The position numbers and the translations under genes are program-made. The notes beneath the pieces were generated by a model. That model made no database searches. It was given only the letters and a program-made list of their open reading frames with translations, and was not told the origin of the DNA. DNA of 57,976 nucleotides from Pseudomonadota bacterium (GTDB lineage Bacteria > Myxococcota_A > UBA9042 > GCA-2863065). Position 1 is the first letter of the stretch, and every line of letters starts with the position of its first letter. The stretch covers positions 1 to 57,976 of the forward strand of contig CANMLD010000005.1 of the NCBI GenBank assembly GCA_947498315.1. Reading direction: 5' to 3'. Positions 2,201 to 34,523 of this stretch are shown here, in pieces.

Positions 2201-2860
2201 TCAGAGCGAGATGGTGCGGAGGTCAGCCGCGACCTCGAAGTCCGCGTCGGTGGCGCGCCGGACGTCGTCGAGCGTCACGCCAGGCGCGAGCTCGCGCAGG
2301 ACGAGCCCCTGCCCGCGCGTGACGTCGAACCAAGCGAGATCGGTCATGATCGCGTCCACACAGGCCCGCCCCGTCAGGGGGAGCGCGCAGGTCTTCTTGA
2401 TCTTGGAGTCGCCGTCTTTGCTCTGGTGAGTCGTGACGACGATGACGCGACGCGCGCCGGCGACGAGGTCCATCGCACCGCCCATGCCCTTCACGCGCTG
2501 GCCGGGGATCATCCAGTTGGCGAGGTCACCGTTCTGGCTGACTTCGAGCGCGCCGAGGACCGTGAGGTCGACGTGGCCCCCCCGTACCATGGCGAAGCTG
2601 TCGGCGCTCGAGAAGAAGGACGCGCCCGGGAGCACGGTGACGGTCTCCTTGCCGGCGTTGATGAGATCAGGGTCTTCGTCGCCCTCGAAGGGATAGGGGC
2701 CGACGCCGAGGATACCGTTCTCGGAGTGGAGGACGACTTCGACTCCCGGCGGCAAGAAGCTCGCCACGAGCGTCGGGATGCCGATGCCGAGGTTGACGTA
2801 GTCGCCGTCGCGCAGCTCTTGGGCGATGCGTTGGGCCATCTGCTCGCGGGTGAGGGGCAT
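2201..2860 (-). CDS. scoB: 3-oxoacid (succinyl-CoA:acetoacetate) CoA-transferase subunit B
   Basis: ATG at 2860: [29 protein letters not shown]; catalytic SENG motif; KGMGGAMDL. Confidence 0.93.
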
Positions 2861-2901
2861 GGTCAGCTCCAAGGCGCCGGGCGCCGGGTCGAGTCGGCCG
2901 A

Positions 2902-3603
2902 TCAGGCCGGGCGCTTGCGGACGGTGCGGCGTTCGATGGGCTTCACGTAGTTCGCCCCCTGAACGAGGCGCTTCACGTAGATACCGGGCACGTGGATCTG
3001 GTCGGGATCGAGCGCCCCCGCCGGGACGAGCTCTTCGACCTCGGCGATGGTGATGCGCGCCGCCGTGCAGATTATGGGGCTGAAGTTGCGGGCGGCCATC
3101 CGGAACACGAGGTTGCCGTGCGTGTCGCCGCGCCAAGCCCGCACGATGGCGAAGTCGGCGAGGATCGGCTTCTCGAGCACGTACCACTTGCCGTCGATCT
3201 CGCGCGTCTCCTTCCCATCGGCCACGACGGTGCCGTAGCCCGTAGGCGTGAAGAAGCCGCCGATGCCGGCGCCACCCGCTCGGATGCGCTCGGCGAGCGT
3301 GCCTTGCGGGACGAGCTCCACGTCGAGCTCGCCGGACAGCATCTGCCGTTCGAACTCTTTGTTCTCGCCGACGTAGCTCGACACCATCTTCCGGACCTGC
3401 CGGTTCTCGAGGAGCACGCCGAGGCCGTTGCCGTCGGTGCCGCAGTTGTTCGAGATGATGGTGAGGCCCTTCGTGCCGCGAGCCCGAAGCGCCGTGATGA
3501 GGTTCTCGGGGTTGCCACACAGCCCAAAGCCGCCGGCCATGAGGGTCGCGCCGTCATGGACGTCGTGGAGGGCCGCCGCCGCCGACTCGAAGATCTTGTT
3601 CAT
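2902..3603 (-). CDS. scoA: 3-oxoacid CoA-transferase subunit A
   Basis: [33 protein letters not shown]; adjacent to subunit B. Confidence 0.93.
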
Positions 3604-3616
3604 CAGGTGGGGTACT

Positions 3617-4051
3617 TCACGTGGGGTTCTTCACGTCGATGACGTCGACGACGCACTGAAGGGGCTGGCCCGCCAGTGGGTGGTTGAAGTCCGCGATGAC
3701 GGCATCGGGGAGGACCTCGACGATCCGGCACACGAGCTCGACACCCTCGGGCGAGCGCATGGGGAAGCGCATGTCTTTTCGGACCTCGACCTGAATCGGC
3801 AGCGCGCTCCGTGCGATACGCTTCACGAGGTCTTCGTTGCGCTCGCCGTAGGCGTCTTGCGCTTGTACCGTGAAGCTCTTGCGATCGCCTGCACGGAGGC
3901 CCATGAGCGCGCGCTCGAAGCCCGGCACGAGCTGTCCGGCGCCGCAGTACAGCTCGATCGGATCGTTCGCTGAGGTCTCGTCGACGAGCGTCCCGTGGGC
4001 GTCGTTCATGACGTACCCGATCCGGATGACGCTGTTCTTGGTGATGCGCAT
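3617..4051 (-). CDS. slyD: FKBP-type peptidyl-prolyl cis-trans isomerase, SlyD-like, with no His-rich tail
   Basis: GQLVPGFERALMG, DAYGER and DFNHPLAGQPL motifs. Confidence 0.88.
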   Translation of the reverse strand: MRITKNSVIRIGYVMNDAHGTLVDETSANDPIELYCGAGQLVPGFERALMGLRAGDRKSFTVQAQDAYGERNEDLVKRIARSALPIQVEVRKDMRFPMRSPEGVELVCRIVEVLPDAVIADFNHPLAGQPLQCVVDVIDVKNPT

Positions 4052-4251
4052 GTGTCTCCCCCGGCCGAGTGTGCCCGGCGCCCCGAGTCAGCACGAAGTC
4101 CAAAGGCGACCCGCGTAGGCCAACCACCGGAAACCACGAAGAAAACGGGAAAATACCACCTGCACGAAGGCGGGAAGTACGATAGCGAGCGCCACCAACA
4201 GGTGTCAAAGGAATTCCGGCCAATACGGGATATAGTGGGGCGATGGAAAGC

Positions 4252-5106
4252 ATGCCCGCTACGGCCCCTACCCTGCCTCCGAAGCCCCCTGCCGACGCCG
4301 CCACGGTCCTGCTCCTGAGGCTGGGAGCCCAAGGCTCCCTGGAGATCTTCCTCTGCCGCCGAAGCACCAAGTCCACCTTCATGGGCGGCGTCTACGTCTT
4401 CCCGGGTGGACGGGTCGATGCGGCTGACGCTGGACCCGCGCTGCGGGTCGCCACGAGAGGGCGCGACGCCGACGCCTGCGCCGCCATGCTCGGCCTCTCG
4501 GCAGACCGAGCCGTCGCGCACTGGATCGCGGCAATTCGAGAGACCCTCGAAGAAGCAGGCGTCTGGCTCGGGGACCCAGCAACGGTCGCGACAGCGGCGA
4601 TGTGCCTAGAGCTCACTGCAACCAAAGACGACGGGGCGGCCTTCGCCTCCATGGTCACTCGCTATGGCCTCCGCTTCGACCTCTCGCGGCTACGCTACTT
4701 CGCCCATTGGGTGACCCCTACCGTCGAGCCGAAGCGCTTCTCGGCGCGCTTCTTCATCGCGGAGCTCCCCGCCGACGAAGCCGCCGTCATCGACGGGCAG
4801 GAGATCATCGACGGCAAGTGGCTCACCCCGGCCGACGCCATCGCGCGATACCAAGCGAGGGAGTTCGACCTCGCCCCACCGACCTTCCACTCCCTGATGG
4901 TCCTCGCCGCCGCCACGGACATCCCAGCCGCGCTCGCCCTCGCGGCGGACGCGCCGGTCGTGTTGCACACCCCCGAAGCGGTGTTCGAAGGAGGCCGCCT
5001 GTCGCTCGTGCTCGCCGGAGACGTCGCGCACCCGTCGACGCCGGGCGGTGAGCTACGGCGCTTCACCCTCATCGACGGTTGTTGGAACTACGAAGGGGCG
5101 CTGTGA
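4252..5106 (+). CDS. NUDIX hydrolase (NUDT19-like)
   Basis: AATVLLLR, YVFPGGRVD, AAIRETLEEAG and HWVTP..EPKRF motifs; start chosen at ATG 4252. Confidence 0.88.
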   Translation: MPATAPTLPPKPPADAATVLLLRLGAQGSLEIFLCRRSTKSTFMGGVYVFPGGRVDAADAGPALRVATRGRDADACAAMLGLSADRAVAHWIAAIRETLEEAGVWLGDPATVATAAMCLELTATKDDGAAFASMVTRYGLRFDLSRLRYFAHWVTPTVEPKRFSARFFIAELPADEAAVIDGQEIIDGKWLTPADAIARYQAREFDLAPPTFHSLMVLAAATDIPAALALAADAPVVLHTPEAVFEGGRLSLVLAGDVAHPSTPGGELRRFTLIDGCWNYEGAL

Positions 5107-5217
5107 TCACGGACTGACGGGCAGGCAGCCAAGAGGCACCGGATCGCGCTCTATTGGTTGCGCCGCCGAGCCTGTGCGCGATCCGCCCTTCGGAGCCCAG
5201 AGAGGCGGAACGCCTAC

Positions 5218-11791: not shown

Positions 11792-12356
11792 GCATTGGCC
11801 CCGAACCGGTCTCACGCTCTTTGGGGCACCGGGCCCTCACACAGTGCTGGTTTCGAGTTGGCGGGGACGCTCTCGGCTCACGCCGGCTGGCGCGGACGGC
11901 GTAGAGGAAAGCACTACCGGACCTTCGAACAAGGGCCTTCGAACAAGGACCGCCGAACTCGACCTCGAACTCGACGCGTCGGTTCTGCTTCAGAGCCGCG
12001 GGTGCGTCCGAATCTACGAGTGGTTTGGCCTCACCGAAGCCACGCTGCTCGAGGAGCGACGCCGAGATCCCCTTGTTCACGAGGAACTCGTAGACCTGGA
12101 GCGCACGGCAGCGGCGTACGTCCAAAGATCTCGAACCCGAGATCGATGCGCCCGATGATGGCCGCGACGTCGAGCCCGAGGCCGTACGTGAGCTCGTGGC
12201 CGAAGTCTCGGCCGACGAAGCTGACCTCCTCCGTGCGGATTCGAGTGCCGACGTTCAGGGCGAGTGCGACGCGCTCACTGCGGTAGTCGGTGATGAGCCC
12301 AGCGAGGACGCCGAAGCCGGGGTCGCCCATGAACTTCTCTCCATCACCAGTCGGCG
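11792..12356 (-). pseudogene. Degenerate duplicate of the 3' end of the giant OmpA gene plus its downstream flank, with an internal deletion and a 14-bp duplication
   Basis: 11792-12109 aligns to 13588-13891, and 12110-12356 aligns to about 14695-14941. There is an extra ccttcgaacaaggg near 11922-11949. Confidence 0.9.
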
Positions 12357-12391
12357 GAAGCGCTCCCCCAAGTGACGTTTGGACGAGGCAC

Positions 12392-13709: not shown

Positions 13710-16700
13710 CTACCGCACCTTCGAACAAGGACCGCCGAACTCGACCTCGAACTCGACGCGTCGGTTCTGCTTCAGAGCCGCGGGTGCGTCCGAGTCTACG
13801 AGTGGTTTGGCCTCACCGAAGCCACGCCGCTCGAGGAGCGACGCCGAGATCCCTTTGTTCACGAGGAACTCGTAGACCTGGAGCGCACGGCGGAGGCTGA
13901 GATCGTAGTTCTGCGCGTCGGTGCCTTCGACGCTCGCATGGCCCGAGACGAAGACGTGGAGGAGCGGCGTCTCGTTGTTGACCTGGTACGCGGCGATGGC
14001 GTCAGCGACGTCGTTCAGCGTCGACTGTGACTCGGCGGAGAGCAGGTCTCGGGCCCTCTCGAAGTAGGCTCGGCCGAGCTGGAGACGGCACTGGACGATC
14101 GTCTTGGCGACGGCCACGGTGACTTCGTCCGGGCAGCCGTCGCGGTCCTCGAAGCCGTTGACGGTCTCGGGCTTCTCGGTGCACGCGTCGGCAGAGTCAA
14201 GGATGCCGTCGTGATCGTTGTCGAGCTCGGGGCAGCCGTCCTGGTCCTCGTAGGCGTCGAGATCCTCACGGTCGTTCGGGCAGAGGTCGCGTGCGTCGGC
14301 GATACGGTCGCCGTCGATGTCGCCGTCCGGGCAGCCGTCGTCGTCGTCGATGCCGTTGTTGTCCTCCGGATCGAGTGGGCACTTGTCCGCGACGTCGAGG
14401 AGGTTGTCGCTATCGTTGTCGAGCTCGGGGCAGCCGTCATCGTCGCCGAAGCCGTCCTTGTCTTCGGCCGAGAGCCGGCAGTCGTCCTCGGTGTCGAGGA
14501 TGCCGTCGCCGTCGCTGTCATCATGGCTGGGGGCCCACATCAGGCCGGCGGTGAAGCGGAAGTCCGGCGCGCCGTAGCCTTCGATGAGGCCAGCGCCGAC
14601 GGCGACCTCGAGCCCGAGCCCATCGACGATCCACCACTTCGGCCCCGCGAGCAGCTCGAGGGTCGTATCCTCGACGCTGGAGAAGGGGTCGAGCAGCGGC
14701 GTACGCCCAAAGATCTCGAACCCGAGATCGATGCGCCCGACGATGGCCGCGACGTCGAGCCCAAGGCCGTAGGTGAGCTCGTGGCCGAAGTCCCGGCCGA
14801 GGAAGCTGACCTCCTCTGTTCGGATGCGAGTGCCGACGTTCAGGGCGAGTGCGACGCGCTCACTTCGGTAGTCGGTGATGAGCCCAGCGAGGACGCCGAA
14901 GCCCGGGTCGCCCATGAACTTCTCTCCATCGCCGGTCGGCGCGGTCATACCGAGGAGCAGACCGAGGCCGAAGCCGCCCACGCGGTTGTCGACGATGGTC
15001 CCCCGCAGTCGCACCGAGAGGTCGCCGAGTCCGGCACCGGTGAGCGGCGCAATCGCCGTCACGCCGTCGCCGCTGCCGGTGGTCAGGATGAGCGGGAGCC
15101 CGACGTCGAGCTGAAGCACGTCCCAGAGGCCAATACCGAGGTTGACGTCCGCGATGGACTGAAAGTCGACGATCGACTGCTCGTTACTGCCCACGACGAG
15201 CCGCAAGCTCTGCCTCTCGCCGTGGAAGCGGAGGTGCCCGTACGGCTGCCACTTCGGGGCGACCAGGCTCTGCTCGACCGAGAAGGACCGGAAGCGTCCA
15301 CCCGCGGGCCAGAAGTTCTCGATGTTTACGTTGCCGACGGCCTGCTGGGCCGACGCCGCGTCCGGCAGGCAGAACGCGACGACGAGCAGCGTGCCCGCGT
15401 GGCGAGCTGTGCTGAAACGACGACGACGCAAAAGGAGCGAGAGGGCGACCAGGGCGAGGAGCGCCACGCCGAGGCCGGTGCGCCCACGCGCCCCCGTCCC
15501 GCTTGCAAGATCGCAGCGGAACACGTTGTCACCCGACACGATGGCCTTCGAGAAGTCGTCGTCCGTCACCTTGGGGTCGGTATCGTTGTCGAGCTCGTCT
15601 CCGTCACCGACGCCGCCGCCGTCCGTGTCGAACTTCGTCGGATCCGTCCCGTGAACGTCGAGCTCGAGCTTGTCACTGATGCCATCGCCATCGGTGTCGG
15701 CGCGCGTCGGATCCGTGGGCGAGATCGATGTGCAATCGCGCTCATCAGCCGTGGCTCCCTTACACGGATCCGTCTCCACTATGTCGGGGAGCCCGTCACC
15801 ATCGGTGTCGAGTCGACCGTCCTGCGGGTCGAGCGGATCGGACTCCCCCGCGTCGACGCGGCCATTGCCGTCCTTGTCTTCACCGCCGTCGGTGAGCCCA
15901 TCGTCATCCGTGTCGGCGTTCTTCGGGTCCGTGGTGGCCTTTGGGTCGGCGTCCGGGATGAAGGCTCCCGCGTCGGTGTCAGAGGTGCCCACGGTCTCTC
16001 CGACCTCGGTCCCGTCACCCACGCCGTCGCCATCGGTATCGGCGACGGTCGGTGAGGTTCGCGTCGCAGAGACCTCGAGGCCGTCGGCCAGCCCGTCGTC
16101 GTCGGTGTCCGCGTCGAGAGGATCCGTCCCAAAGGTGTCTTCGGCGTCATCGCTGAGGCCATCACCATCGTCGTCAAGGTCAGCACAGTCGAGAAGCGAG
16201 TCGCCATCGGTGTCAACGACGCCCTGCGCCGGGGGCGTGTCGTCCTTCGAGAGCGGGTTCGTCCCGCAGACGGCTTCGGAGACATCGAGGACGCCATCGC
16301 TGTCATCGTCGTCGTCCGCACAGTCGAGCAGGTCGTCGCTGTCCGTGTCGACGAGCTCGTCGAGGCTCGGCGAGTCCGACGCGTCGAGCGGCGCCGTTCC
16401 ACACAGCGCTTCGACGCCATCGGCGATCCCGTCGCCGTCGCTGTCCACTTCGGCTCCGTCGCACTTCCCGCTCCCGTCCTTGTCTACCGGAGTGGAGGTC
16501 GCGTCGGTTGGGTCGGTGCCGCACTGGCGCTCGACACCATCGTCGGAATCGTCGCCGTCAGTGTCCTTTCGAAGCGGGTTCGTCTCGTCCGAGTCGGCTC
16601 GTCCGTCGCGATCGCGATCTTCGATGGCGTCGCTGAGACCGTCGCCATCGGTGTCAGACTTCGTCGGATCGGAGCCTTGGCACGCGGTCGCTACCCCGTC

Positions 16701-19700: not shown

Positions 19701-21914
19701 CGGTGCGGCTGCAGTGATGAGGAAGGAGCGGCCGACGCCGCCAGTCGTCGCGTTTTGCAGTTCGCAAGCAAAAGACCTGCTGTCAACGCCATCGACGAGC
19801 TGCCCCCCTTGTTCCAGAGCCATCAACTCACCACCTGCAGCGAACTGAAGGCCAGTGCAGGCGAGCGTCGGCGAGAGGCCGTCCGCAGTAGCGACGCTGC
19901 CGAGCGCGACGACGGCGCGGCCGCCAGGCGGGATCGTCACGAGGCCGGTTATGACGCAGTCATCGCCGAAGTCGAGCCGCCCTGATTGAAGCTGAAGCGA
20001 GATGCCGCCCTTCGACACGTCGATAGTGGTCTGGCTTCGATTCAAGAGCTCGAACCACTGCTCGCCACTGGCGGTCGGGCTGAAGCGCGAGATATGAAGC
20101 TCAGTCATGACGAGTGCGCCCGACTCGAGGTTGCACGAGCCGCTACAGCCGTCTCCGGGCACTTTTGCCCCATCGTCGCAGGCTTCGTCGCCAGTTCGTT
20201 GTCCGTCGCCACACACGGCGCAAGCGGGTTCGTCAGCGTCGTCGATCGCATCGCAATCTTGATCGCCCGCGAGGCCACACTGTTCGGCCGCGCCGGGATT
20301 GGCGACGCTGGAGTCGTCGTCACAGTCGGCATCGAGGAAACCACAACCGGATCGGAACGCGGACGAGAAGGCCACGTCACCGTAGCCGTCGGTGTCGCCA
20401 TCGATGCAGGTGTCGCAGGTTGCGGCTGAGTTCTCGGCGAGCCCATCCCCATCGACGTCACTGATCACGGCGAGCGAGAGGATCTCGACCCCTTGGTTGG
20501 CGTTGCTGAGCGCGTTGACCGTGTCGTAGAAGAGGCCGACCTGGTGCACACCGGTCGGCAAGGCCACGCTGAGCTGCATGATCGCGGCGGTCGGGACGTT
20601 CACCGACGCGATGACCCCCGGTTTGCCGACCCGACAGTTCGCAGGGGAGCTATCGAGACAAACGCCAAACACGTCCTGGCCTGGGACGCCGTCGCCGGAG
20701 AGGCGATAGGTCGCGACGAGGCGCGGTGCCGCCATAGTCGTCGGCACGGTAACGAGGCGCTCGACGACGAACCATCCACCATTGGGTGCAGCGGTGGCGA
20801 TGCTGGCGGCGTCCACGGCGAAGCCGCCGATGCCCGTGCTGACGGGTTCATGTGTGAAGCCAGCGGGGTTGCCCGGCCCGTGACTGAACGCCGTCGTCGT
20901 GAAGCCACTCGCGCCTTGGTCGAAGGAGAGTCCCGTCAAGCACGCACTACATTCGACCCGAGCGGTGCAAACCGGATCGGCGCAGTCGACCTTGCCGTCG
21001 CCGTTATCATCCTTTCCATTCGCACAGTCCTCGAGCCCACAGTCCCCTTCGTCGAAGCCGTCCACGAGGCCGTCGCAGTCCTCATCGCCGACGCTCCCAC
21101 AGACCTCTGCCGCGTCCGGGCTCACAGCGTCGTTCCCGTCGTCACAGTCGAGGAGGCATCCGGGGCCCGGGCTCACGCTCTGCGCATAGCCGTCGCCGTC
21201 CACGTCCCAGCAGACGTCGCACCCCACGACGTCGCCGTCTGGGATGGCGTCACCGTCGATGTCAGAGAAGAGGCGTAGGTGTTCGACGCCGACGCCGAAG
21301 CCACCACCGCCGCTGCCGTTCGTGCTGAAGTCGAGCGTAATGGTGAAGGTCGGGCCAGCCACGCCGGAGAGGTCGACGAAGATGTGATCGTTCGTGCCGT
21401 CGTAGAAACCGGGGGCGGTGTGGACGACACTGCCGGAGTTGGTGGTCGTGCTGTACTTGACCGACGCGGGACTGCAGGCCGGATCGTTGACGCAGACTCG
21501 GAATCGGTCCTCGCTGCCCAGCGTGGACGCCGCCCGACGGTAGACCACTTCGAGCGTCGGCTGCGGCATCGCCGTCGGCAGGGCGTACGCGCGCGTGATG
21601 GCTGCCGCCTGAGCGCTCATCGGCACGCCAGCGGGCCCGCCAGTTCGAAGTCTCGAGCCATCGAGGGCCCAGAGGCCGCCCGTTGGCGCGAAGCCATTGA
21701 ACCCCGAATCGAACGCGGTCGAGACGCCGCAGAGATCGGTACAAGCCGGGTCCGAGGCACAGGCGCCGTCGGCGCAGTCCGCTCCGCTCGATCCGTCATC
21801 GTCCAGGCCATTGGCGCAGTCTTCGGCAGCGCCTGCGGGCCCGGAGATGGCTAGGGTGGCGACGACGAGGCTAGCGAAGAGAGGGCCCTTGGTCAGGCTA
21901 TCTACCGACTTCAT
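13710..21914 (-). CDS. Giant (about 2734 aa) surface protein 2: signal peptide, Cys-rich/jelly-roll modules, lamin-tail domain, TSP3-like stalk, internal MYXO-CTERM-like signal, TraB-like barrel, TSP3 repeats, OmpA
   Basis: ATG 21914 overlaps the upstream stop (ATGA). EDCANGxDDD repeats; MTELH...EQWFELLN (LTD); many DxDxDGxxD repeats; FRCD...LLALVALSLLLRRRR; C-terminal GHAS...NYDLSLRRA...GFGE...NRRVEF. Confidence 0.9.
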   Translation of the reverse strand: MKSVDSLTKGPLFASLVVATLAISGPAGAAEDCANGLDDDGSSGADCADGACASDPACTDLCGVSTAFDSGFNGFAPTGGLWALDGSRLRTGGPAGVPMSAQAAAITRAYALPTAMPQPTLEVVYRRAASTLGSEDRFRVCVNDPACSPASVKYSTTTNSGSVVHTAPGFYDGTNDHIFVDLSGVAGPTFTITLDFSTNGSGGGGFGVGVEHLRLFSDIDGDAIPDGDVVGCDVCWDVDGDGYAQSVSPGPGCLLDCDDGNDAVSPDAAEVCGSVGDEDCDGLVDGFDEGDCGLEDCANGKDDNGDGKVDCADPVCTARVECSACLTGLSFDQGASGFTTTAFSHGPGNPAGFTHEPVSTGIGGFAVDAASIATAAPNGGWFVVERLVTVPTTMAAPRLVATYRLSGDGVPGQDVFGVCLDSSPANCRVGKPGVIASVNVPTAAIMQLSVALPTGVHQVGLFYDTVNALSNANQGVEILSLAVISDVDGDGLAENSAATCDTCIDGDTDGYGDVAFSSAFRSGCGFLDADCDDDSSVANPGAAEQCGLAGDQDCDAIDDADEPACAVCGDGQRTGDEACDDGAKVPGDGCSGSCNLESGALVMTELHISRFSPTASGEQWFELLNRSQTTIDVSKGGISLQLQSGRLDFGDDCVITGLVTIPPGGRAVVALGSVATADGLSPTLACTGLQFAAGGELMALEQGGQLVDGVDSRSFACELQNATTGGVGRSFLITAAAPSGSGNNAATDWCLAATTSSYANSGSHYGSPFQAGTCAERTCDAIDDDCDGSTDELLSDLDSDGRCDARDCAPLVPTCAADCATDTDDDNVADCQDGCIDADGDGFGVKGGLLVSTCSLFGGQPATDCDDTLAFVKPGGVETTSGGACDNGLDDDCDGTPDCLDSACALQTVCAGETCAAPTTLGCGQTITVDPGVDDIACGDGADAVYRFVAPTAGNYRVELQNLGRVQYGAFFSRVTCSPVDCTGATTANLTTTCAAPGDRQLTLGAGEVLFVTVDDVAACAGAGSAQGKLTLRCAEVCTGGADEDGDGKTDCADVDCIANAACTVLDFDSDGVSTQLELTCGTDPANAGSLPGADAIANTDGDPQPNCVDVDDDQDGVLDTIELSTCVLQPLTAKNNDDIYPGGPIQCAVAGVDGDCDGVFDAVSAECGTIEQQCSDTLDNDADGKADCLDIDCIASSLCAAADFDDDGVPNALELQCNSKPAVSSSKPAPEQAADLDDDGLANCIDVDDDGDGSNDTEEIICGSDPDDDGATPPDLDSDDQCDAVDPDDDGDGFDDALENDCGASPVSAGSTPIQPGFDTDQDGTCDTRDSDRDGDGWSNALEIACGTSVANAADNPDDSGLNVDGDTLCDSVDPDDDDDGWLDEQELLCKTDSSDETDSPIDTDLDGLCDLLDDDTDGDLWPDVLEVQCGTSPVDVADNPTALGLDGDDDLLCDKVDSDDDGDGWTDGAEAQCGTAPGSAASKPVDTDSDTACDVIDDDDDGDGALDLVEELCGTLAKDETDTPADADGDGLCDSRDPDADFDGDGWSNQLEGECGTDPGKPTSKPNDADADGQCDALETDDDGDGWPDVLESLCGTSPTSAASAPVDTDKDGTCNTVDTDDDGDGVPDLSETLCGKDPLIKGDKPDIAELTDIDGDGDVGCVDTDDDSDGLPDVAELLLGSNPVVADTDGDGLLDGDEDKSQDGILTGTETDPTKFDTDGDGLSDKTEVDSCYLGDGVATACQGSDPTKSDTDGDGLSDAIEDRDRDGRADSDETNPLRKDTDGDDSDDGVERQCGTDPTDATSTPVDKDGSGKCDGAEVDSDGDGIADGVEALCGTAPLDASDSPSLDELVDTDSDDLLDCADDDDDSDGVLDVSEAVCGTNPLSKDDTPPAQGVVDTDGDSLLDCADLDDDGDGLSDDAEDTFGTDPLDADTDDDGLADGLEVSATRTSPTVADTDGDGVGDGTEVGETVGTSDTDAGAFIPDADPKATTDPKNADTDDDGLTDGGEDKDGNGRVDAGESDPLDPQDGRLDTDGDGLPDIVETDPCKGATADERDCTSISPTDPTRADTDGDGISDKLELDVHGTDPTKFDTDGGGVGDGDELDNDTDPKVTDDDFSKAIVSGDNVFRCDLASGTGARGRTGLGVALLALVALSLLLRRRRFSTARHAGTLLVVAFCLPDAASAQQAVGNVNIENFWPAGGRFRSFSVEQSLVAPKWQPYGHLRFHGERQSLRLVVGSNEQSIVDFQSIADVNLGIGLWDVLQLDVGLPLILTTGSGDGVTAIAPLTGAGLGDLSVRLRGTIVDNRVGGFGLGLLLGMTAPTGDGEKFMGDPGFGVLAGLITDYRSERVALALNVGTRIRTEEVSFLGRDFGHELTYGLGLDVAAIVGRIDLGFEIFGRTPLLDPFSSVEDTTLELLAGPKWWIVDGLGLEVAVGAGLIEGYGAPDFRFTAGLMWAPSHDDSDGDGILDTEDDCRLSAEDKDGFGDDDGCPELDNDSDNLLDVADKCPLDPEDNNGIDDDDGCPDGDIDGDRIADARDLCPNDREDLDAYEDQDGCPELDNDHDGILDSADACTEKPETVNGFEDRDGCPDEVTVAVAKTIVQCRLQLGRAYFERARDLLSAESQSTLNDVADAIAAYQVNNETPLLHVFVSGHASVEGTDAQNYDLSLRRALQVYEFLVNKGISASLLERRGFGEAKPLVDSDAPAALKQNRRVEFEVEFGGPCSKVR

Positions 21915-24900
21915 CGGACACCCCCACCCTGGTCGCATCGTCCACCGAACGTCAACTTTACCTCCACGCGCCGCGAAGCGCCTTCATCGGACAGGATCTC
22001 CTGATCGCCGAAACCGCGGGCCGGCGAGATGACCCGCGGTAGACCACGCGAAACGAGCGCGTCTCGCACGGCGCGAGCTCGTCTCAGCGAGAGTGCCAGC
22101 GTGTCGACAGACTCACCCTCATTGACGGTGTGGCCGTTGACGCTGACCTCCACGACGGGAGGCGCATCGGCCACCGCCATACGCTCCTTGATCTTGCCTG
22201 CGACGACACCGATGACGTTTCGTGCCTCGGCGTCGATGCTCCAGGACAGGCGGTCGAACACGACCCTCTCAGCGATCGCGAAGCCACACGGATCGTCGGC
22301 CGCCTCGGGCGGCGGTGCGCCGCCGGACCCTGCGATCTCGTCGGGGCAACCGTCGCGAACAGCCGCGGTCTCCGGCTCTGCCACCACGGGACACTGGTCA
22401 GTGCCATCGAGGACGCCGTCTCCATCATTGTCAGCCTCTGGACAGCCGTCGTCGTCTTGGTAGCCATCGGGATCTTCGGGCGCATCTGGGCAGCGGTCGA
22501 CGACGTCGAGTTTGCCATCGCCATCGACGTCGCTGTCCGGGCAGCCGTCGTCGTCCTTCAGTCCGTTCATGTCCTCAGCTCGCTGTGGGCACTGATCGTC
22601 GGCATCGGCCACGCCGTCGCCATCATTGTCGGCTTCCGGGCAGCCATCGAGGTCGGCATAGCCGTCCTTGTCTTCCGCCTCGAGCGGGCACACATCGATG
22701 GCGTCATCGATGCCGTCGCCGTCACCGTCTGATTCGCGGGGCGCCCATGAGACACCCGTCAGAAAGCGAAAGGCTGGCGTCCCGACACCCTGCACGAGCC
22801 CCACTGCGGCGCCGGCTTCGATAGCCAGGTTCGGGACGACCCACCAGCGAACACCGAACATCCCCTCGAGCCCGCTGCTTTCCTGGCTAGAGAAGGGATC
22901 TTCGAGCGGGGTCTTTCCGAAGACCTCGAAGCCGAGATGCACATGAGAAGGCCACGCTCCAACGTCGACGCCGAGCCCATACGTGAGCTCGTGGCTGTAG
23001 GTGCCGTTTAGAAAGGTGGCTTCTGCCGATCGAATTCGCGTCCCAACGTTGAGCGCGAGCGTCGCGTACGTGGAACGGAGCTCATTGATGATGGCGAGAT
23101 GCACACCGACGCCGGGATCGCCACGAAAGCGGTCTTCGTCGCCGGTCGGAAAGCTCAGGCCGAGAGAGAACGCCAAGCCGTAACCGCCATCGGTGCTGTC
23201 CACAGCCGCCCCCTTGAGGCGCATCACGAGATCACCGAGCCCTGCCCCATCCGTGCGAGCGATCGGCGCGATGGCAGTGACGTCCGGGGCAGACGACATC
23301 TCGAGCGCTAGCGGCAGGCCAATGTCGAGCTGCATGAACCCGAAGAGTCCAATGCCGAGGTTGATGTCGGCGTACGTCGCCGTGTCGACAAGGACCTCGG
23401 TGCGGTTGCCCGTCGAGACCTGAAAGCTCTCGCGTTCACCGTGGAAGAGGACGTGCGCGTATGGCTGCCACTTTGGCCCTGAGGGCGCCTCCTCCACGGT
23501 AAAGATGCGGTAGCGCCCGCCGACCGGGCTGAAGTTCTCGACGTTCATCGCGCCGGTCGCCTGAGCCCGCGCGTTTGGTGCGAAGCCGCCCACGACCCCT
23601 ACCGTCAGCGCGAGTCCAGCTTTGCGGGACCGACGCCAGAACATCGCCGCCGCGAATAGGCCAAACGCCAGGAGCCCACCAATGGGGAGGTCGCCCGTAT
23701 CGGTCGTCGTGCACCCGAAGACGTTGTCGCCGATGACCTTGGACGGGGAGAAGTCGTCGGACGCCACGTTCGGATCGGTCCCGTTCTCAACCTCTGGCCC
23801 GTCGAGGATGCCGCCATCGTCGGTGTCGGTGTCGTTCGGGTCGCTACCATAGACATCGACTTCGAGCTTGTCGTTCAGGCCGTCGTCGTCGCTGTCCGTG
23901 TCATTTGGATCGGTCGGGTTGGGTTGACCGTTTCGGGTCCCTGCGAGCTCCTCCCTATCGATGAGCCCGTCGGCGTCGGTATCGAGCAGGCCGTCACCCG
24001 CATCGAGAGGGTTCCCTTCACCGGGGTCGACTCTGCCGTTGTGACGATTGGCGGGCTCACACGCGGCAGCGCCGGGCGCATCAGCGGAGCAGGCGTCCTC
24101 CACGCCGTCGGTGAGGCCATCACCATCGGTGTCGGGATTCTTCGGATCGGACACGCTCGTCGGATCCGCGTCGGCGATGAAACCCTCGCCCGTGAACGAC
24201 GTCCCTGCCGTCACCCCGAGCTCAGTCCCGTCTTGAACGCCGTCGCCGTCGGTGTCAGCGGTGTTTGGATCGGTCGTCGTCCGTTCGACTTCGTCACCGT
24301 CGGCGAGCCCGTCGTCATCGCTATCGGCGTCTTTGGGGTCGGTCTCCCACAGCGCCTCGGCGTCAGCGTCGAGCCCGTCACCATCTTGGTCCGGATCGGC
24401 GCAATCGAGCACGCCGTCGTCGTCCGTATCGAGTGTGTCATCGGGCGTGGGCGTCGATACCGGCAGGAGAGGGTCAGTCCCGCACTCGAGCTCGTCCTCG
24501 TCACTCACCAGGTCACCGTCGTCGTCCGCGTCGGCGCAGTCGATAGCGTCGTCGATGTCGGAGTCCTCGAGGCTTGCAAGAGAAGGAACCGACGTGAACT
24601 TCTTCGGATCGGTCCCGCAGAGCTGCTCCACGCCATCCGCCACGCCGTCTCCGTCGGTGTCGGCTTCGGCGCCATCGCAGATCCCGCTTTGGTCCTTGTC
24701 GACTGGGTTCGATGACGGGTCCGTCGGCGATGTGCCGCAGAGCGTCTCCTCTCCGTCGTCATCGCCATCGCCGTCGGTGTCCGAGACGGTCGGGTTGGTC
24801 TCGCCCTCGCTCGTCTCTCCGTCACCGTCAGCGTCCTCGAGCCCGTCCTGAAGGCCGTCGCCGTCGGTGTCCGCGGCGGTCCCGAGGGTCGCTTCGCATG

Positions 24901-27900: not shown

Positions 27901-30139
27901 GCACGACGGCCGATCCGATCTCACAGCCAAAGGACCGGAAGTCAGCGACGTCGACCGTCGTCCCGCCGAGCTTCAGGCGGACGAGGTCACCCGTGGGGTC
28001 GAGCTGAAGGCCGAGGTTGCAGGCAAAGTCGGCGAGGAGGCCGTCGGACGTGGCCGCACTACCGAGCGAGATGACGGCGTAATCGCCGCCCGCAACGAGC
28101 GGCGATGTCACGATGGCGCAATCGCCGAGTGCGATCGATTGCCCGGTCTCGCGCTCGATGGCGGCGCCAGCCGCGACGAGGTCGATAGCAGCACCCGTTC
28201 GATTGTAGACTTCGATCCATTGCTCGCCGAAGCCGCCTTCCGTGAGTCGAGTTACGTGCAGCTCGCTGATGGCCAGCACGCCTGCTTCGACCTGACAGAG
28301 GCTGTCACAACCATCACCGGCCCCCGTTCCATTGTCGTCGCACTCTTCGCCCGCCGTGACGGCGCCGTCGCCGCACTCCGAGCAGGCGATCTCATCGTCG
28401 TCGTCGAAGCCGTCGCAGTCCTGGTCGCCAAAGACATCGCAGGCTTCCGCAGCCGACGGGCTCGTTAGCGCGTCATCGTCGTCACAGTCGGTGAGCGCTT
28501 GAGGACAGGCCGAGACGAAGACGCTGCCGACCGCGCTCGACCCGAAGCCATCACTGTCGGCGTCGACGCAACGGTCACAGGTCGGTACCGCCGAGTTCTC
28601 AAAGTCGCCGTCCGTGTCGATGTCGCTGCCAACGGAGACGAACCCGACGAAGAGGCCACGACCGGTGCCGCCCGCCTCGGACGTCACGGTGTCGTAGAAG
28701 ATCGTGACCGACACGGTCTTGCCTGCCGACCCTGGCGGGAGCGGGATAGCGACGACCTTCGTCGCGAGGGCGGGGCCGTCTACGTCGGTCTTGAAGGCGA
28801 TGAGCCCCGGAGCGGCGCTGGCGAAGCACTGGGACGCCAGGGTGTTAAAGCACACGCCGAAGACGTCGCGACCGGGCGTCGCTTCGCCATCGAGGCGATA
28901 GTCGATGACCAGAGTTGGTGAGGGTAACCCCGCCGGGATGACGAAGGACCGCGTGAGGGTGGCGCGAACCGAGGTCGCACCTGGCGCGCTTTGCTTGTCT
29001 GCCACCTTGCCGGTGAGCGCCGTCCACCATCCACGCTCGCCCGGGTTCCCTTCGCCGTACTCGAAGACCCGCGTCGCGCCGCTGCCGTCGGGATCGTTGT
29101 CCGCGGCCACAAAGGCCGAGCCTCCGCGGTTGAGAGTGAGCACGGTCGCGCAAGGTTCAGCGCAAGCGGCCTCGGTGGTGCAGGTCGCGTCGGCGCAGTC
29201 CACGAGGCCATCTTGATTGTCGTCGACGCCATTGGCGCAGTCCTCGATGCCGCAGGAGCCGACGTCGAGGGCGTTGAAGAGGCCATCGCAGTCTTCGTCG
29301 CCCGCTTCGGCACAACGCTCTTGTGCGGCCGGGTTCGTGAGCGCGTCGGTGTCGTCGCAGTCAGGCCCCGATGCGCCACAACTGCCACCAAGCCCGGGGC
29401 TCGCTGGGTCGAGGAATCCGTCGAGGTCGGCGTCCCAGCAGGCATCGCAGACGCCGGCCGCCGCCTCCGACGCACCATCACGGTCAACGTCAGACGCGAC
29501 CGTGAGCCCGCGCACGAGGAGGCCTGGCCGAGCGCCGCCCGTGGTCCCATTGCTGTCGAGGCCAATTGAGAGCGTGACCGTCTGCCCGGCGAACGCGGCG
29601 AGATCGATGAACGCATGGTCGAAGGTGCCGTCGTTGTAGGCTGGACTCGGCAACGCCGGGTTCTGGCCAGGTACGGTGTTGCCGCTGGTCGAGAGGAGGA
29701 GGCTCGCCGAGGCGACCTTACAGTCGCCGGCATTATTGGCGCACACCACCAGATAGTCTCGGAAGGGATTCGGGTCGCCCTGCAACGAGTAGACGAGCTC
29801 GAGCGTCGGGGCCGGCCCCTGAGAGAGCGGTGGGACGGCGACAGACCACTCGAAAGACTCCACCACCGGCGGCGACGCCGGGAGCGGTCCCACCATTCGC
29901 ACCACGGGGGTCGGCGTCGACTCATGAACGAACGCGGGCGGCAGCGCCAAGGGTCCGGGACCACTCGAGAAATTCAGCGCTTGCGTACACGGCCCACACC
30001 ACACGTCGGCGATGCAGGCCGTGTCGATGCAGTCGACCTGGTCATCGCCGTCGTCGTCGGTGCCGTTGGCGCAGTCTTCCGGGGCGGCCATGGCCAACGC
30101 CGGAGCGACCAGGAGAGCGAGGAGGAAGCGGGTCATCAT
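21911..30139 (-). CDS. Giant (2742 aa) surface protein 1, collinear paralogue of 13710-21914
   Basis: MMTRFLLALLVAPALAMA signal; same domain order; internal GDNVFGC...GLLAFGLFAAAMFWRRSRK; C-terminal LSLRRA...RGFG...RRVEV OmpA-like domain. Confidence 0.9.
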   Translation of the reverse strand: MMTRFLLALLVAPALAMAAPEDCANGTDDDGDDQVDCIDTACIADVWCGPCTQALNFSSGPGPLALPPAFVHESTPTPVVRMVGPLPASPPVVESFEWSVAVPPLSQGPAPTLELVYSLQGDPNPFRDYLVVCANNAGDCKVASASLLLSTSGNTVPGQNPALPSPAYNDGTFDHAFIDLAAFAGQTVTLSIGLDSNGTTGGARPGLLVRGLTVASDVDRDGASEAAAGVCDACWDADLDGFLDPASPGLGGSCGASGPDCDDTDALTNPAAQERCAEAGDEDCDGLFNALDVGSCGIEDCANGVDDNQDGLVDCADATCTTEAACAEPCATVLTLNRGGSAFVAADNDPDGSGATRVFEYGEGNPGERGWWTALTGKVADKQSAPGATSVRATLTRSFVIPAGLPSPTLVIDYRLDGEATPGRDVFGVCFNTLASQCFASAAPGLIAFKTDVDGPALATKVVAIPLPPGSAGKTVSVTIFYDTVTSEAGGTGRGLFVGFVSVGSDIDTDGDFENSAVPTCDRCVDADSDGFGSSAVGSVFVSACPQALTDCDDDDALTSPSAAEACDVFGDQDCDGFDDDDEIACSECGDGAVTAGEECDDNGTGAGDGCDSLCQVEAGVLAISELHVTRLTEGGFGEQWIEVYNRTGAAIDLVAAGAAIERETGQSIALGDCAIVTSPLVAGGDYAVISLGSAATSDGLLADFACNLGLQLDPTGDLVRLKLGGTTVDVADFRSFGCEIGSAVVLGTGRSLQRSNPGVDLSGATAWCMAAATASYATSGKHFGTPGSAATCAERACDGLDDDCDGTTDELLADGDGDGRCNQQDCDPVAATCTTDCVTDTDTDGTPDCKDGCLDADADGYGVKGGLAVSSCLGADCEDTLNFVNPGKTEGPGAAVCLNGVDDDCDAKPECTDTDCRTTPACAGEACGSPRVIACGGDVTLEPESNDFTCGAGADALFAFTAPSTGSVTLRIDNLGAQQYRAAVQSTTCTDLACGASTTTVETSCQVGGASSFPVTVGTTYFAVVDQVAACAGSGAAPVRVRLQCGELCTGGIDEDVDGLKDCADSDCVANAACANQDLDGDLATNGAEIICGTSPTSPFSTPSAADVANPDNDAFLSCVDPNDDNDPRTDAQEAGCAPGAQADATVYPGAPRQCGAAGVDADCNGAIDALEAACGSQESQCANEKDDDADGTIDCLDTDCLGSGACKSLDFDGDGVSNGFELACGISPQNPLQEPSPAEAADTDGDEVPNCADQDDDGDGAFDLVELACGSSPIVASQKPTDTDGDGQCDAVDPDDDDDGAPDLLEVNCATNTLSATETPTSPAFDLDSDGTCDARDLDIDQDGWENDVEETCGSDPADDESSPPADGLDGDSDGLCDALDSDDDGDGWNDDEEALCLTPGNDGDKFPSDIDQDGTCDLFDIDTDDDGWPDALEVQCSTSPLLASSNPTLSGADTDGDKLCDKVDADDDGDGWSDVAEGECATDPREPGEVPTDTDGDRLCDLRDDDDDDDGAYDTTELLCGTDPLDLTSIPADADVDGLCDPLDPDGDVDGDGWSNQDELACGTDAKKDSSTPVDTDSDLSCDALDLDDDGDSWSDLDEVACGTLPLASGSVPADVDSDDACDPLDLDDDGDGAVDLDELACGTNPKLSTDRPFEADLVDTDGDLALDCVDEDDDDDDVLDTAEVAYGSSTKLSDTDGDGLADGVENANRDGVKDLSETSAIIKDSDGDGLSDGLEASSCYADPCEATLGTAADTDGDGLQDGLEDADGDGETSEGETNPTVSDTDGDGDDDGEETLCGTSPTDPSSNPVDKDQSGICDGAEADTDGDGVADGVEQLCGTDPKKFTSVPSLASLEDSDIDDAIDCADADDDGDLVSDEDELECGTDPLLPVSTPTPDDTLDTDDDGVLDCADPDQDGDGLDADAEALWETDPKDADSDDDGLADGDEVERTTTDPNTADTDGDGVQDGTELGVTAGTSFTGEGFIADADPTSVSDPKNPDTDGDGLTDGVEDACSADAPGAAACEPANRHNGRVDPGEGNPLDAGDGLLDTDADGLIDREELAGTRNGQPNPTDPNDTDSDDDGLNDKLEVDVYGSDPNDTDTDDGGILDGPEVENGTDPNVASDDFSPSKVIGDNVFGCTTTDTGDLPIGGLLAFGLFAAAMFWRRSRKAGLALTVGVVGGFAPNARAQATGAMNVENFSPVGGRYRIFTVEEAPSGPKWQPYAHVLFHGERESFQVSTGNRTEVLVDTATYADINLGIGLFGFMQLDIGLPLALEMSSAPDVTAIAPIARTDGAGLGDLVMRLKGAAVDSTDGGYGLAFSLGLSFPTGDEDRFRGDPGVGVHLAIINELRSTYATLALNVGTRIRSAEATFLNGTYSHELTYGLGVDVGAWPSHVHLGFEVFGKTPLEDPFSSQESSGLEGMFGVRWWVVPNLAIEAGAAVGLVQGVGTPAFRFLTGVSWAPRESDGDGDGIDDAIDVCPLEAEDKDGYADLDGCPEADNDGDGVADADDQCPQRAEDMNGLKDDDGCPDSDVDGDGKLDVVDRCPDAPEDPDGYQDDDGCPEADNDGDGVLDGTDQCPVVAEPETAAVRDGCPDEIAGSGGAPPPEAADDPCGFAIAERVVFDRLSWSIDAEARNVIGVVAGKIKERMAVADAPPVVEVSVNGHTVNEGESVDTLALSLRRARAVRDALVSRGLPRVISPARGFGDQEILSDEGASRRVEVKLTFGGRCDQGGGVR

Positions 30140-31062
30140 CGCGTCACCACCGGGATGGAGGGCGCCCAGGAGACACCCGTCACGAAGCGGAACTCAGGGG
30201 TGCCGTAGCCCTGGATGAGACCGGTCCCGAGGCCGAGCTCGAGGGCCAGGCCATCGACGACCCACCAGCGGGGTCCGAGCATGATCTCGAGCGAGGTCGA
30301 CTCCAGAGACCCCATAAAGTCGGAGAACGGTGTACGGCCCGAGAGCTCGATGGCCAGCCCGAGGCGGCGGTCGAAGACCTCCACGAGGGTGCCGAGACCG
30401 AAGGTGAGCTCGCTGCCGAACTCAGCGGTATAGAAGGACGCGGATTCGAAGCGGATTCGGGTACCGACGTTCGCGCTGAGGCGGACGGTGCTCCACTGAT
30501 GGTCGAGGACGACGTTGGCAAGGAGACCAGCGCCAGGGTCACCTCGAAATTGGTCGCCGTCGCCGGTGGGGACGGTCGCGCCGAGGCTCAGGCCGACGCC
30601 AAAGCCGCCGCCTTTGGAGGAGAGCGGGGTGCCCCGGAGCCGGACGACCATGTCGCCGAGCCCGCCGCCCGACAGCGGCGAGACCGACGTGGTGTCAGGG
30701 TCGGACTCCATTGTCATCGCGACCGGGAGCCCGACGTCGAGGCTCATAAACCCCCAAAGTCCGACGCCGACGTTGATGTCGGCAAAGGTGTGGGTGTGGA
30801 CGACCCACTCGGTGTGGTCGCCCGCCGTGATGGAGAGGCTATTGCGTTCACCGTGAAAGAGCACGTGGCCGTAGGGTTCCCACGCGGGCCCGACGTCGGC
30901 CGAGCCCACGGCGAAGAGTCGGTAGCGCCCGGAGGCCGGTGTGAAGTTGACTGCATTGACGTTCGGCGTGATCGCAGCCGCGACGTCGGGGAGCCACGAA
31001 AGCAACCCGATAGCCCAAAGGCAACGGGGAGCGGAGGCGAGAATCGATGAACGCACATGCAC
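30136..31062 (-). CDS. Stand-alone TraB-like outer-membrane beta-barrel protein (no TSP3 or OmpA), first gene of the giant-protein operon
   Basis: GTG 31062 with AGAGGG RBS; signal ending VAAA. NFTPASGRYR, WEPYGHVLFHGER, GLGDMVVRLRG and GYGTPEFRFVTGVSWAP are shared with the barrel regions of both giant proteins. Confidence 0.85.
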   Translation of the reverse strand: MHVRSSILASAPRCLWAIGLLSWLPDVAAAITPNVNAVNFTPASGRYRLFAVGSADVGPAWEPYGHVLFHGERNSLSITAGDHTEWVVHTHTFADINVGVGLWGFMSLDVGLPVAMTMESDPDTTSVSPLSGGGLGDMVVRLRGTPLSSKGGGFGVGLSLGATVPTGDGDQFRGDPGAGLLANVVLDHQWSTVRLSANVGTRIRFESASFYTAEFGSELTFGLGTLVEVFDRRLGLAIELSGRTPFSDFMGSLESTSLEIMLGPRWWVVDGLALELGLGTGLIQGYGTPEFRFVTGVSWAPSIPVVTR

Positions 31063-33625: not shown

Positions 33626-33816
33626 GAAGTCCTCGATGGTCACAGCTACAACGAGTCACCCTAGGGTCGACGCTCGATCAGGGCTTCGTTGAGGGTCGGA
33701 CTGCCCGGCCACGCAGACGCAGGTGGGGGCACCTAACCCAATCGGCGTAGATACACAACATGCCTGGGGGGTTGAAGCTGGGCAAGGGCGCTCGCGACCC
33801 CTATCCTCCAGCCACG

Positions 33817-34506
33817 ATGCGCTGCCACCTCATCATCAGCCTGCTCTTTGGCTTGTTCGGCAATGCCGGATGCCAAGCCGACGCGGAGTGGGAGTCACCG
33901 TCGGTGGAGGCGGTGAACGAACGCATCGAGGCGGCCGCACGATTGCGCGTATCAACCGACGTGAGGCCACCCTTGGAAGCCCCTGTGGCCGTTCCTCGAG
34001 CAGAAGCACCACAAACGCCCCGCAAGGGTCGCCTCAAGGTCCCGCCTCCTCTCCCGCTGAGGCCCGCCAGCCCGAGCGTTCAGGTCGAAGCGACGGGGCC
34101 TTGCGTGGTGCTCGTCGATCGCGTGTGTGACCTCCTGAACCCATCTTCCGAAGAGTGTGGGGAAGCGCGTCGTCGGCTTCAGTCCACATACGCGCCATCG
34201 ATGGATCCGGCGTGCCAAGAGTCGCTCGACTTCGTTCGGGTGCAGATTGACGAGAACCTCCGCGTAAAGCCGTGCACCGTCCTTCAGGACCTCAGGTGCG
34301 CCAACTTCCGTTCGCGGTCGCCGCAATGCAGGACGGCCAGGAAAGCGGTAGTGCACTTGACCAAGAACCATCCAGAGAACTGCATCGCCGAGCTGCTCCT
34401 CAGTCGCGCCTTCGACCCACCTCTACCGCCTCCGGCGCAGCCGACTGGGAAGAAGTCGACTGGGAAAAAGCCGAGGAGCAGGGCGAAGGCGCCTTCATCA
34501 CTCTGA
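33817..34506 (+). CDS. Hypothetical lipoprotein with Cys-containing helical repeats
   Basis: MRCHLIISLLFGLFGNAGC signal; PCxxLxxxxC repeated twice. Confidence 0.65.
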   Translation: MRCHLIISLLFGLFGNAGCQADAEWESPSVEAVNERIEAAARLRVSTDVRPPLEAPVAVPRAEAPQTPRKGRLKVPPPLPLRPASPSVQVEATGPCVVLVDRVCDLLNPSSEECGEARRRLQSTYAPSMDPACQESLDFVRVQIDENLRVKPCTVLQDLRCANFRSRSPQCRTARKAVVHLTKNHPENCIAELLLSRAFDPPLPPPAQPTGKKSTGKKPRSRAKAPSSL

Positions 34507-34523
34507 GAGTTCAAGTCGCCGTA

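Follow-up and report, generated by a model that had tools for sequence, protein, structure and literature searches.

How can a single bacterial gene hold, some hundreds of residues ahead of its own end, what looks like a C-terminal surface-sorting tag, followed by what looks like a second signal peptide and a complete outer-membrane protein? The question is raised by an open reading frame of 2742 codons (referred to hereafter as Giant 2) in a 57,976-nucleotide stretch of DNA, contig CANMLD010000005.1 of assembly GCA_947498315.1 (the window), which belongs to the metagenome-assembled genome of a lake myxobacterium (328 contigs, 91% complete). Giant 2 lies beside a tandem paralogue, Giant 1, and a sequence-only reading had proposed that the interior of Giant 2 contains a polyprotein junction. 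We consider it probable, from the sequence and from comparison with relatives, that Giant 2 is exported as one Sec precursor in which signal peptidase I and a myxosortase would each make a cut, yielding a lipid-anchored adhesin and an outer-membrane barrel with an OmpA domain as anchor.

The internal junction of Giant 2 and its split counterpart

The junction (15340–15535) corresponds to residues 2135–2200 of Giant 2, and the order of elements that had been read there (GDNVFRC, a Gly-rich linker, a hydrophobic helix, RRRR, a second hydrophobic stretch and then QQ) is present exactly in the translation (Table 1). The distance to the C-terminus, given earlier as about 550–600 residues, also holds, Cys2142 lying 600 residues ahead of the end of the protein. 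Between the signature and the first helix runs the linker DLASGTGARGRTG; the final codon of that helix is TTG (15429–15431). The second segment contains R2179, then GTLLVVAFCL, a proline at −6 and A-S-A before Q2198, and the sequence beyond the putative cut (ASA/QQ, the slash marking the cut here and below) reads QQAVGNVNIENFWPAGGRFRSF. A Kyte–Doolittle scan of Giant 2 in windows of 15 residues gives only three notable strong peaks, namely the N-terminal signal, 2159–2165 (2.87) and 2188–2190 (1.74).

Both known signal types can be recognized in this arrangement. The tripartite anatomy of a MYXO-CTERM tag is complete, with C2142 as the Cys signature, 2156–2170 as the hydrophobic helix and RRRR as the Arg cluster; 568 residues follow the Arg cluster, so the tag does not occupy the extreme C-terminal location usual for MYXO-CTERM. 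The second segment has the anatomy of a Sec signal for signal peptidase I, with a basic n-region, an h-region within the range of ~7–15 residues and small residues at −3 and −1. A lipobox reading of VAFC2190 was tried and rejected, Phe at −1 not being a lipobox residue and the Cys not being conserved (at 2190, V in 6 and A in 5).

Table 1. Positions of the junction elements, the giant genes and the split pair (window coordinates, except for the last row)
Feature	Residues	Coordinates	Strand	Basis or remark
Giant 2 open frame, 2742 codons		13710..21938	(-)	translation
Giant 2 N-terminal Sec signal peptide, MKSVDSLTKGPLFASLVVATLAISGPAGA/AEDC		21828..21914	(-)	read by eye, cleavage site inferred; hydrophobic peak at 24–31
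Giant 2 passenger, Cys-rich acidic adhesin	~2100 residues	15513..21827	(-)	
GDNVFRC signature	2136–2142	15513..15533	(-)	presumed lipidation and myxosortase cleavage site
First membrane helix, LGVALLALVALSLLL	2156–2170 (15 residues)	15429..15473	(-)	candidate stop-transfer part of the tag
RRRR	2171–2174	15417..15428	(-)	predicted cytoplasmic loop shared by the tag (as its basic tail) and the second signal (as its n-region)
Second signal-peptide-like segment, FSTARHAGTLLVVAFCLPDAASA	2175–2197	15348..15416	(-)	
Outer-membrane β-barrel, PF13557-like	~2204–2469	14532..15329	(-)	profile match, model, fold search
Thrombospondin type-3 (Asp/Cys) calcium-binding repeat linker		14124..14531	(-)	
OmpA-like peptidoglycan-binding domain		13722..14093	(-)	PF00691
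Giant 1, tandem paralogue	2742 residues	21911..30139	(-)	sequence comparison with Giant 2
Giant 1 junction: GDNVFGC, helix IGGLLAFGLFAAAMFW, RRSRK, AGLALTVGVVGGFAPNARA/QA		23564..23731	(-)	
Free barrel gene, GTG start		30136..31062	(-)	signal peptide and barrel only, no thrombospondin type-3/OmpA part
Split pair, adhesin and barrel–OmpA gene (L017; contig C154, same genome)		534-2333 and 2376-5198	(-)	

The tandem paralogue carries the same layout. Giants 1 and 2 are 47.5% identical over the passenger and 47.8% over the mature C-terminal part, and their junctions (55 residues) give no BLAST alignment although the flanks are 47–48% identical; the two junctions keep a physico-chemical pattern without keeping the sequence, as is typical of sorting signals.

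A split version is found on contig C154 of the same genome. Here the adhesin ends ...DDFLGGRLTGAGTPSC..helix..RRRANKGSEL-stop (EDDFLGGRLTGAGTPSC...AILCALLLAAWGAFVLLRRRANKGSEL-stop), such that its Cys–helix–RRR tag sits 7 residues ahead of the stop codon; an 84-nt spacer follows, with GGAGG 9 nt ahead of an ATG, and then a barrel–OmpA gene with its own signal peptide, the barrel of which is 48.6% identical to that of Giant 2. The terminal tag of this adhesin scores 9.8 bits against the MYXO-CTERM model, below the cut-off, its nearest model being GVDTG-CTERM (GVDTG_CTERM, NCBIfam; 20.3 bits, cut-off 29). The same split pair is found in a same-genus genome (L016). Comparison with the split pair thus describes the fused junction as a sorting tag and a signal peptide from which the stop codon, the spacer, the ribosome-binding site and the initiator Met are missing.

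Conservation of the junction and fold of the part beyond it

We then asked how far this arrangement extends beyond the window. Residues 2120–2742 served as query against database proteins of 1508–4799 residues (E ≤ 1e-5), of which at least 370 match. Counts were taken on 122 matches that were kept; a barrel hit was present in 98 (the 24 lacking one at E 1e-5 were left out), and setting aside the window's own copy and the free barrel leaves 96 fused homologues. All 96 have the Cys, the hydrophobic helix, the basic loop and the second hydrophobic stretch ahead of the barrel, and the basic loop has a median of four basic and no acidic residues (94 homologues). Among them are P0075 of Myxococcus xanthus, which bears the name AgmC, and a Haliangium "GC_trans_RRR domain protein". 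The passengers in the family are highly diverse, with tandem-95 repeats and Ig-like, LTD and EGF-like domains; the joining of such different passengers to one junction and barrel–OmpA part argues that the latter behave together as a module.

Within the junction, conservation is concentrated on few positions. The only conserved columns in 24 close relatives are G2136 and C2142 (24/24 each), R2173 (23/24) and the three positions around the putative cut, where −3 is Ala in 23 of the 24, −1 is Ala, Ser or Gly (21, 2 and 1, respectively) and +1 is Gln in 22. Such selection at −3, −1 and +1 would be expected of a signal-peptidase site. The claim that the Arg cluster leads into a second signal with an A-x-A site is therefore borne out at the level of sequence, the more so in that stand-alone homologues carry signal peptides at the same position. 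Of these, 120 (315–1003 residues) are present among the matches listed, and 107 have a barrel hit (the 13 without one at E 1e-5 were left out); in 101 of the 107 the barrel begins no more than 70 residues from the N-terminus and is preceded by a classical signal peptide of Met, basic residues, hydrophobic stretch and A-x-A/Q. The internal stretch of the fused proteins therefore stands where the stand-alone proteins have a genuine signal peptide, and the spacing agrees as well, the last basic residue and A-x-A lying a median of 21 residues apart in fused and 19 in stand-alone proteins.

A crude signal rule (not SignalP), which asks for a hydrophobic 8-mer with a basic residue ahead and A-x-A behind, was passed by 67 of the 96 internal segments, by 65 of 95 stand-alone N-terminal signals and by 35 of 1920 random passenger windows, the fused count being lowered by cases in which the rule took the first helix as the core. 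By this measure the junction pattern evidently exceeds chance.

Barrel loci in relatives' genomes were located by tblastn, and family members occur in 21 of the 21 genomes searched. The genome of the window itself holds at least five fused members. Three further loci of this genome (L018, L019 and L020, on contigs C14, C32 and C1) show a fused junction of G-x-C, helix, RRR, second helix and A-x-A, their barrels being more distant (27–33% identity). Two loci in other genomes (G004:C86 and G007:C18) were considered as split forms and rejected, since what looked like internal stops proved to be where the genes naturally end, and both junctions keep the frame; a supposed stand-alone protein (P0124, 580 residues, G003:C777) was dropped as uninformative, as it begins at a contig end.

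These data bear on the suspicion that an error in sequencing or assembly joined two genes to make Giant 2, or that it is a recent fusion of pseudogene type, as a metagenome-assembled genome in 328 contigs and a degenerate partial copy just downstream (described below) could suggest. The same in-frame junction is present in Giant 1, in a 91%-identical orthologue (P0005, L004) and eight further relatives' genomes (nine in all), and in the 96 homologues; moreover, no indel separates the window from contigs of independent lake metagenome runs (contig X2 over 14936–15900 and contig X5 over 14966–15514, with 0 differences each, and contig X3 in two pieces with no gaps). An artefact is scarcely credible on these grounds and is refuted as far as sequence data allow.

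Positions 15181–15439, second signal segment included, are matched exactly by a metatranscriptome contig (X7), though contigs from an RNA library cannot prove transcription or RNA ends. There is also a break with a loose end at 15429 in the DNA run of that sample, and nothing is concluded from the closeness of this position to the TTG at 15431.

The part downstream of the junction had been described as a separate barrel–OmpA unit, and we find it to be a complete one. An AlphaFold2 model of residues 2170–2742 (alignment with 51 homologues) has a mean pLDDT (predicted local distance difference test) of 87.8 and comprises a β-barrel (model residues ~35–300), a thrombospondin type-3 (TSP3) linker and an OmpA domain, whereas its first 30 residues, containing the Arg cluster and the second hydrophobic stretch, are disordered and lie outside the fold (pLDDT 47–52). 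The OmpA domain matches PF00691 above the gathering cut-off of 27.2 bits, with 56.9 bits when the whole protein is searched and 60.1 bits for the C-terminal part alone, and Foldseek relates this last domain to many OmpA-like peptidoglycan binders (TMt up to 0.90). Residues 2170–2742 give 23.3 bits against PF13557 and 175.5 bits (E 1e-51) against the TraB model NF033763, far under its cut-off of 700 bits; with its putative signal peptide, β-barrel and C-terminal OmpA domain this part has the architecture of TraB, and by profile score it is best described as a TraB homologue and not an equivalog. For the barrel, Foldseek returns the FapF transporter (TMt 0.59–0.70) and the COG4313 channel 4rl8 (TMt 0.72); the fold is thus nearest to the amyloid-secretion channel FapF and the COG4313 channel, unlike the 8-strand barrel of OmpA.

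The free barrel gene of the window (50–51% identical to the barrels of both giants, 51% for Giant 2) had been cited in support of the second signal, and does begin as claimed: its N-terminus reads ...WLPDVAA/AITPNVNAVNFTPASGRYRLF, with the homologous NFTPASGRYRLF segment directly after its own signal peptide.

It is against this background that we weigh a reading in which the second stretch is a helix that is not cleaved at all, such that a permanent hairpin in the inner membrane would tether the protein or, after sortase cleavage, a C-terminal fragment of it, and the OmpA domain would bind the wall from that membrane. Two helices around a positive loop are the signature of a helical hairpin too, and cleavage is a prediction only. 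Yet the best-conserved junction residues are −3, −1 and +1, which an uncleaved anchor would not require, and the signal that the stand-alone homologues carry there is an ordinary cleavable one; the h-region is short (~11 residues in Giant 2) and followed by the proline at −6, and what lies downstream is a confident outer-membrane-type β-barrel, which would be unable to reach the β-barrel assembly machinery (BAM) if tethered. Such a hairpin is accordingly an option that we regard as distinctly unlikely.

Proposed export, two proposed cleavages and the points that weigh against them

The arrangement described above suggests the following order of events. The N-terminal signal peptide would start Sec export of the ~2100-residue calcium-binding adhesin, the Cys–helix–Arg tag (2142–2174) would halt transfer with RRRR remaining cytoplasmic, and the hydrophobic stretch 2181–2191 would re-insert N-in/C-out in the manner of a signal peptide, the barrel–TSP3–OmpA part following into the periplasm. 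Signal peptidase I would then cut after A-S-A2197 to free a TraB-like protein of 545 residues, which BAM would insert into the outer membrane and whose OmpA domain would bind peptidoglycan. A myxosortase-type CPBP protease would process the tag at Cys2142 and the lipid-anchored adhesin would be taken to the cell surface, while a hairpin peptide of ~55 residues would remain in the inner membrane.

Several observations weigh against this two-cut scheme. In the published passages on members of the family, protein-level evidence for either cut was not found; the signal test applied here is a crude rule that only 67 of the 96 internal segments pass, a proportion like that of the real N-terminal signals; both giants have in-frame start codons just ahead of the Arg cluster (TTG at 15431 in Giant 2, ATG at 23644 in Giant 1); and the profile scores for both the tag and its presumed protease are low. 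Against the MYXO-CTERM model TIGR03901 (curated cut-off 20 bits) the Giant 2 tag gives 13.3 bits (E 0.081), R-C replacing G-C, and the genome's one MrtX-like (NF040593) CPBP gene, a 371-residue frame on contig C14, scores 113.2 and 27.4 bits against a cut-off of 180.

The low scores could mean that the Giant 2 tag is no longer a sortase substrate, in which case signal peptidase would cut alone and the adhesin would be held in the inner membrane by its last helix or freed by another protease. To the scores may be added the Arg in place of the usual Gly before the Cys (R in 4 of the 24 close relatives). The invariance of Cys2142 and Gly2136 argues for continued selection, the Giant 1 tag passes the cut-off (21.3 bits in the junction search, 23.2 bits in the genome search), and a passage of PMC11980579 states that sorting tags work mid-protein; loss of sorting from Giant 2 seems to us highly improbable. 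Of the 8 MYXO-CTERM matches above cut-off in this genome the Giant 1 junction is one, and Giant 2 is absent. That the genome holds such matches together with a MrtX-like gene is in line with the two-cut scheme. The internal MYXO-CTERM tag of the sequence-only reading consequently stands as to its Cys–helix–Arg anatomy, which the family conserves, and falls short in the profile score of Giant 2.

The start codons raise a different possibility: the barrel–OmpA protein might come mainly from separate internal initiation (at TTG 15431 and ATG 23644), a relic of an overlapping two-gene state, with the full-length product being minor or serving as a source of adhesin only. It is consistent with this that both codons, the latter at 23642–23644 in the Giant 1 junction, stand directly before the basic cluster, that the genes of this operon are otherwise coupled through ATGA overlaps, that the overlap of traA and traB is given as four bases in a passage of PMC3325183, and that one homologue (P0096) retains a complete ...KKMSNARRVALPL... 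inner signal with Met. Nothing resembling a Shine–Dalgarno sequence precedes TTG 15431 (ctctcgctcctt), however, and ATG 23644 is preceded only by gcggcggcg; the split paralogue of the same genome, by contrast, has its GGAGG 9 nt ahead of the ATG. A Met occurs in the loop zone of just 25 of the 96 fused homologues, and with no stop codon in the junction ribosomes translating the adhesin would run through, such that the polyprotein would be made regardless. We consider it quite improbable that initiation within the gene is the main source, and retain the single Sec precursor with two cuts as the preferred account.

Whether the two products of that precursor might stay together was approached through a complex prediction of the adhesin stalk (2040–2142) with the barrel (2198–2475), which scored 0.47 against 0.02 for the best control. 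In the benchmark of this score 58 of 80 solved complexes and 2 of 110 mismatches came up to the mark, scores at 0.60 or under coming from only 7 of those 80 solved complexes and from both passing mismatches. The runs share at least 92% of contacts and the partner pLDDT is at least 65. The model offers a weak hint that stalk and barrel may remain associated.

The stalk itself is conserved well past the sorting signature: the stretch 15513–15560 (residues 2127–2142) follows DDF-x-x-A-x-(V/L)-x-G-D-N-V-F-G-C, with D2127, D2128, G2136 and C2142 invariant and N2138 present in 22 of the 24 close relatives. It may be a recognition or docking element.

A more far-reaching proposal would treat the tag, the signal peptide, the 12-strand-type barrel, TSP3 and OmpA as a mobile, self-contained anchoring cassette that is joined to many different passengers and served by two inner-membrane proteases, in which the barrel, besides anchoring to the wall, would be a dedicated outer-membrane dock or conduit for the adhesin, an "autotransporter in trans" acting beside or instead of the type II system. 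A passage of PMC11980579 reports that the display of MYXO-CTERM proteins on the surface depends on the type II system. The complex score of 0.47 is a weak direct hint towards such a dock, and the invariant DDF...G.N.F.C stalk motif, longer than sorting needs, is suggestive; overall we judge the proposal unlikely, if not negligibly so.

Should both cuts occur, Giant 2 would be a bacterial envelope polyprotein that delivers a lipid-anchored adhesin and an outer-membrane/peptidoglycan anchor in a fixed 1:1 ratio to the same spot of the membrane, which would explain why hundreds of giant Myxococcota proteins share the same terminal cassette. Genes of this kind are named merely "OmpA family protein" or "Ig-like domain-containing protein", and tools limited to C-terminal tags and N-terminal signal peptides miss both internal signals. 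For Myxococcus xanthus a myxosortase mutant and tagging methods are already available (PMC11980579).

The remaining features of the locus concern the genes around the junction. The probable start of Giant 2 is Met9, because the ATG at 21914 overlaps the Giant 1 stop codon (ATGA) and matches the database gene call P0004 (2734 residues, 100% identical); this gives a protein of 2734 residues and corrects the earlier 2742-residue frame. The stop of the free barrel gene likewise overlaps the Giant 1 start as ATGA (30136–30139, as at 21911–21914 for Giant 1 and Giant 2), and these overlaps suggest that the free barrel gene, Giant 1 and Giant 2 form a translationally coupled three-gene operon. The order barrel, giant, giant is found again in two same-genus genomes (G001:C279 and G002:C630). 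The passenger of Giant 2 contains many bacterial TSP3 calcium-binding repeats, MopE-like Cys motifs and a weak lamin-tail-like domain, and matches the repeat region of CglD.

Upstream on the same strand (31202–43812, (-)) lie genes for a GGDEF diguanylate cyclase (813 residues), an Hsp70-family protein (576 residues), a TPR/SLT lytic transglycosylase (772 residues) and a 1252-residue protein with MopE-like Cys motifs. A partial and degenerate copy of the 3' end of Giant 2 lies about 1.3 kb downstream of that gene (11937–12366, (-); 95–98% nucleotide identity) and joins a barrel piece (residues 2330–2415) to the OmpA end (2665–2740) in another frame, with an internal deletion; it is either a duplication/deletion remnant or an assembly quirk.

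Comparison with known systems

The closest published counterpart is MXAN_5598 of Myxococcus xanthus, which passages of PMC11980579 (mBio 2025) describe as atypical, an outer-membrane barrel and an OmpA domain coming after an internal MYXO-CTERM within one open reading frame; it is read there as a gene fusion akin to TraA plus TraB (overlapping frames), its N-terminal part is proposed to be processed and surface-anchored, and internal MYXO-CTERM cases are called rare. A second signal peptide or A-x-A site is not mentioned in the passages of that paper on MXAN_5598 or "signal peptide". The protein is listed among vesicle (OMV, outer-membrane vesicle) and membrane proteins in part of PMC4158809. 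The giants share with MXAN_5598 a large adhesin, internal MYXO-CTERM, barrel and OmpA in one frame; they differ in their passenger domains, in lying beside a GGDEF protein, Hsp70 and an SLT transglycosylase where MXAN_5598 lies beside ftsA/ftsZ, and in that their layout is present in two tandem copies and recurs in hundreds of database proteins.

The likeness to TraA/TraB, the M. xanthus outer-membrane exchange pair, lies in the combination of a surface receptor ending in MYXO-CTERM with a barrel/OmpA partner, and the products of the giants might work together in a similar way. There are two genes in that system and one in the giants, the TraB score of Giant 2 is far under 700 bits, and none of the Pfam hits in its passenger is a PA14-type recognition domain; a role in membrane exchange is not inferable.

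AgmC (adventurous gliding motility; P0075) resembles the giants in its junction, which runs GRGC, helix, RFRR, second helix and AVA/Q, and in a TraB-like C-terminal part. Its N-terminal model NF047640 (cut-off 275 bits), matched by P0075 with 379.5 bits, has no match on the contig of the window, and the best score in the genome is 67.7 bits on contig C161; on these profile scores the giants are not AgmC orthologues.

Type V secretion systems carry a passenger and an outer-membrane barrel in one chain or in two genes, the one-chain form fixing a 1:1 ratio. The parts of the giants, in contrast, are separated by a sorting tag, a predicted cytoplasmic loop and a candidate second signal peptide, and their barrel is FapF/COG4313-like and followed by OmpA. 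With two helices and a basic loop between passenger and barrel, TSP3/OmpA after the barrel, and no autotransporter Pfam hit in Giant 2, the architecture departs from that of a classical (type Va) autotransporter.

Viral and eukaryotic membrane polyproteins use a stop-transfer helix, an internal signal and signal-peptidase cleavage to make several membrane proteins from one chain. The giants would differ in belonging to a bacterial envelope and in that the second cut is proposed to be made by a sortase-type intramembrane protease; a narrow literature search found no bacterial precedent for a polyprotein with an internal signal. Set beside these systems, the layout is real and widespread and is already in print for MXAN_5598, such that its finding in the window is confirmatory and not new; what is added here is the conserved A-x-A/Q site, the three-gene operon with ATGA overlaps and a split version in the same genome.

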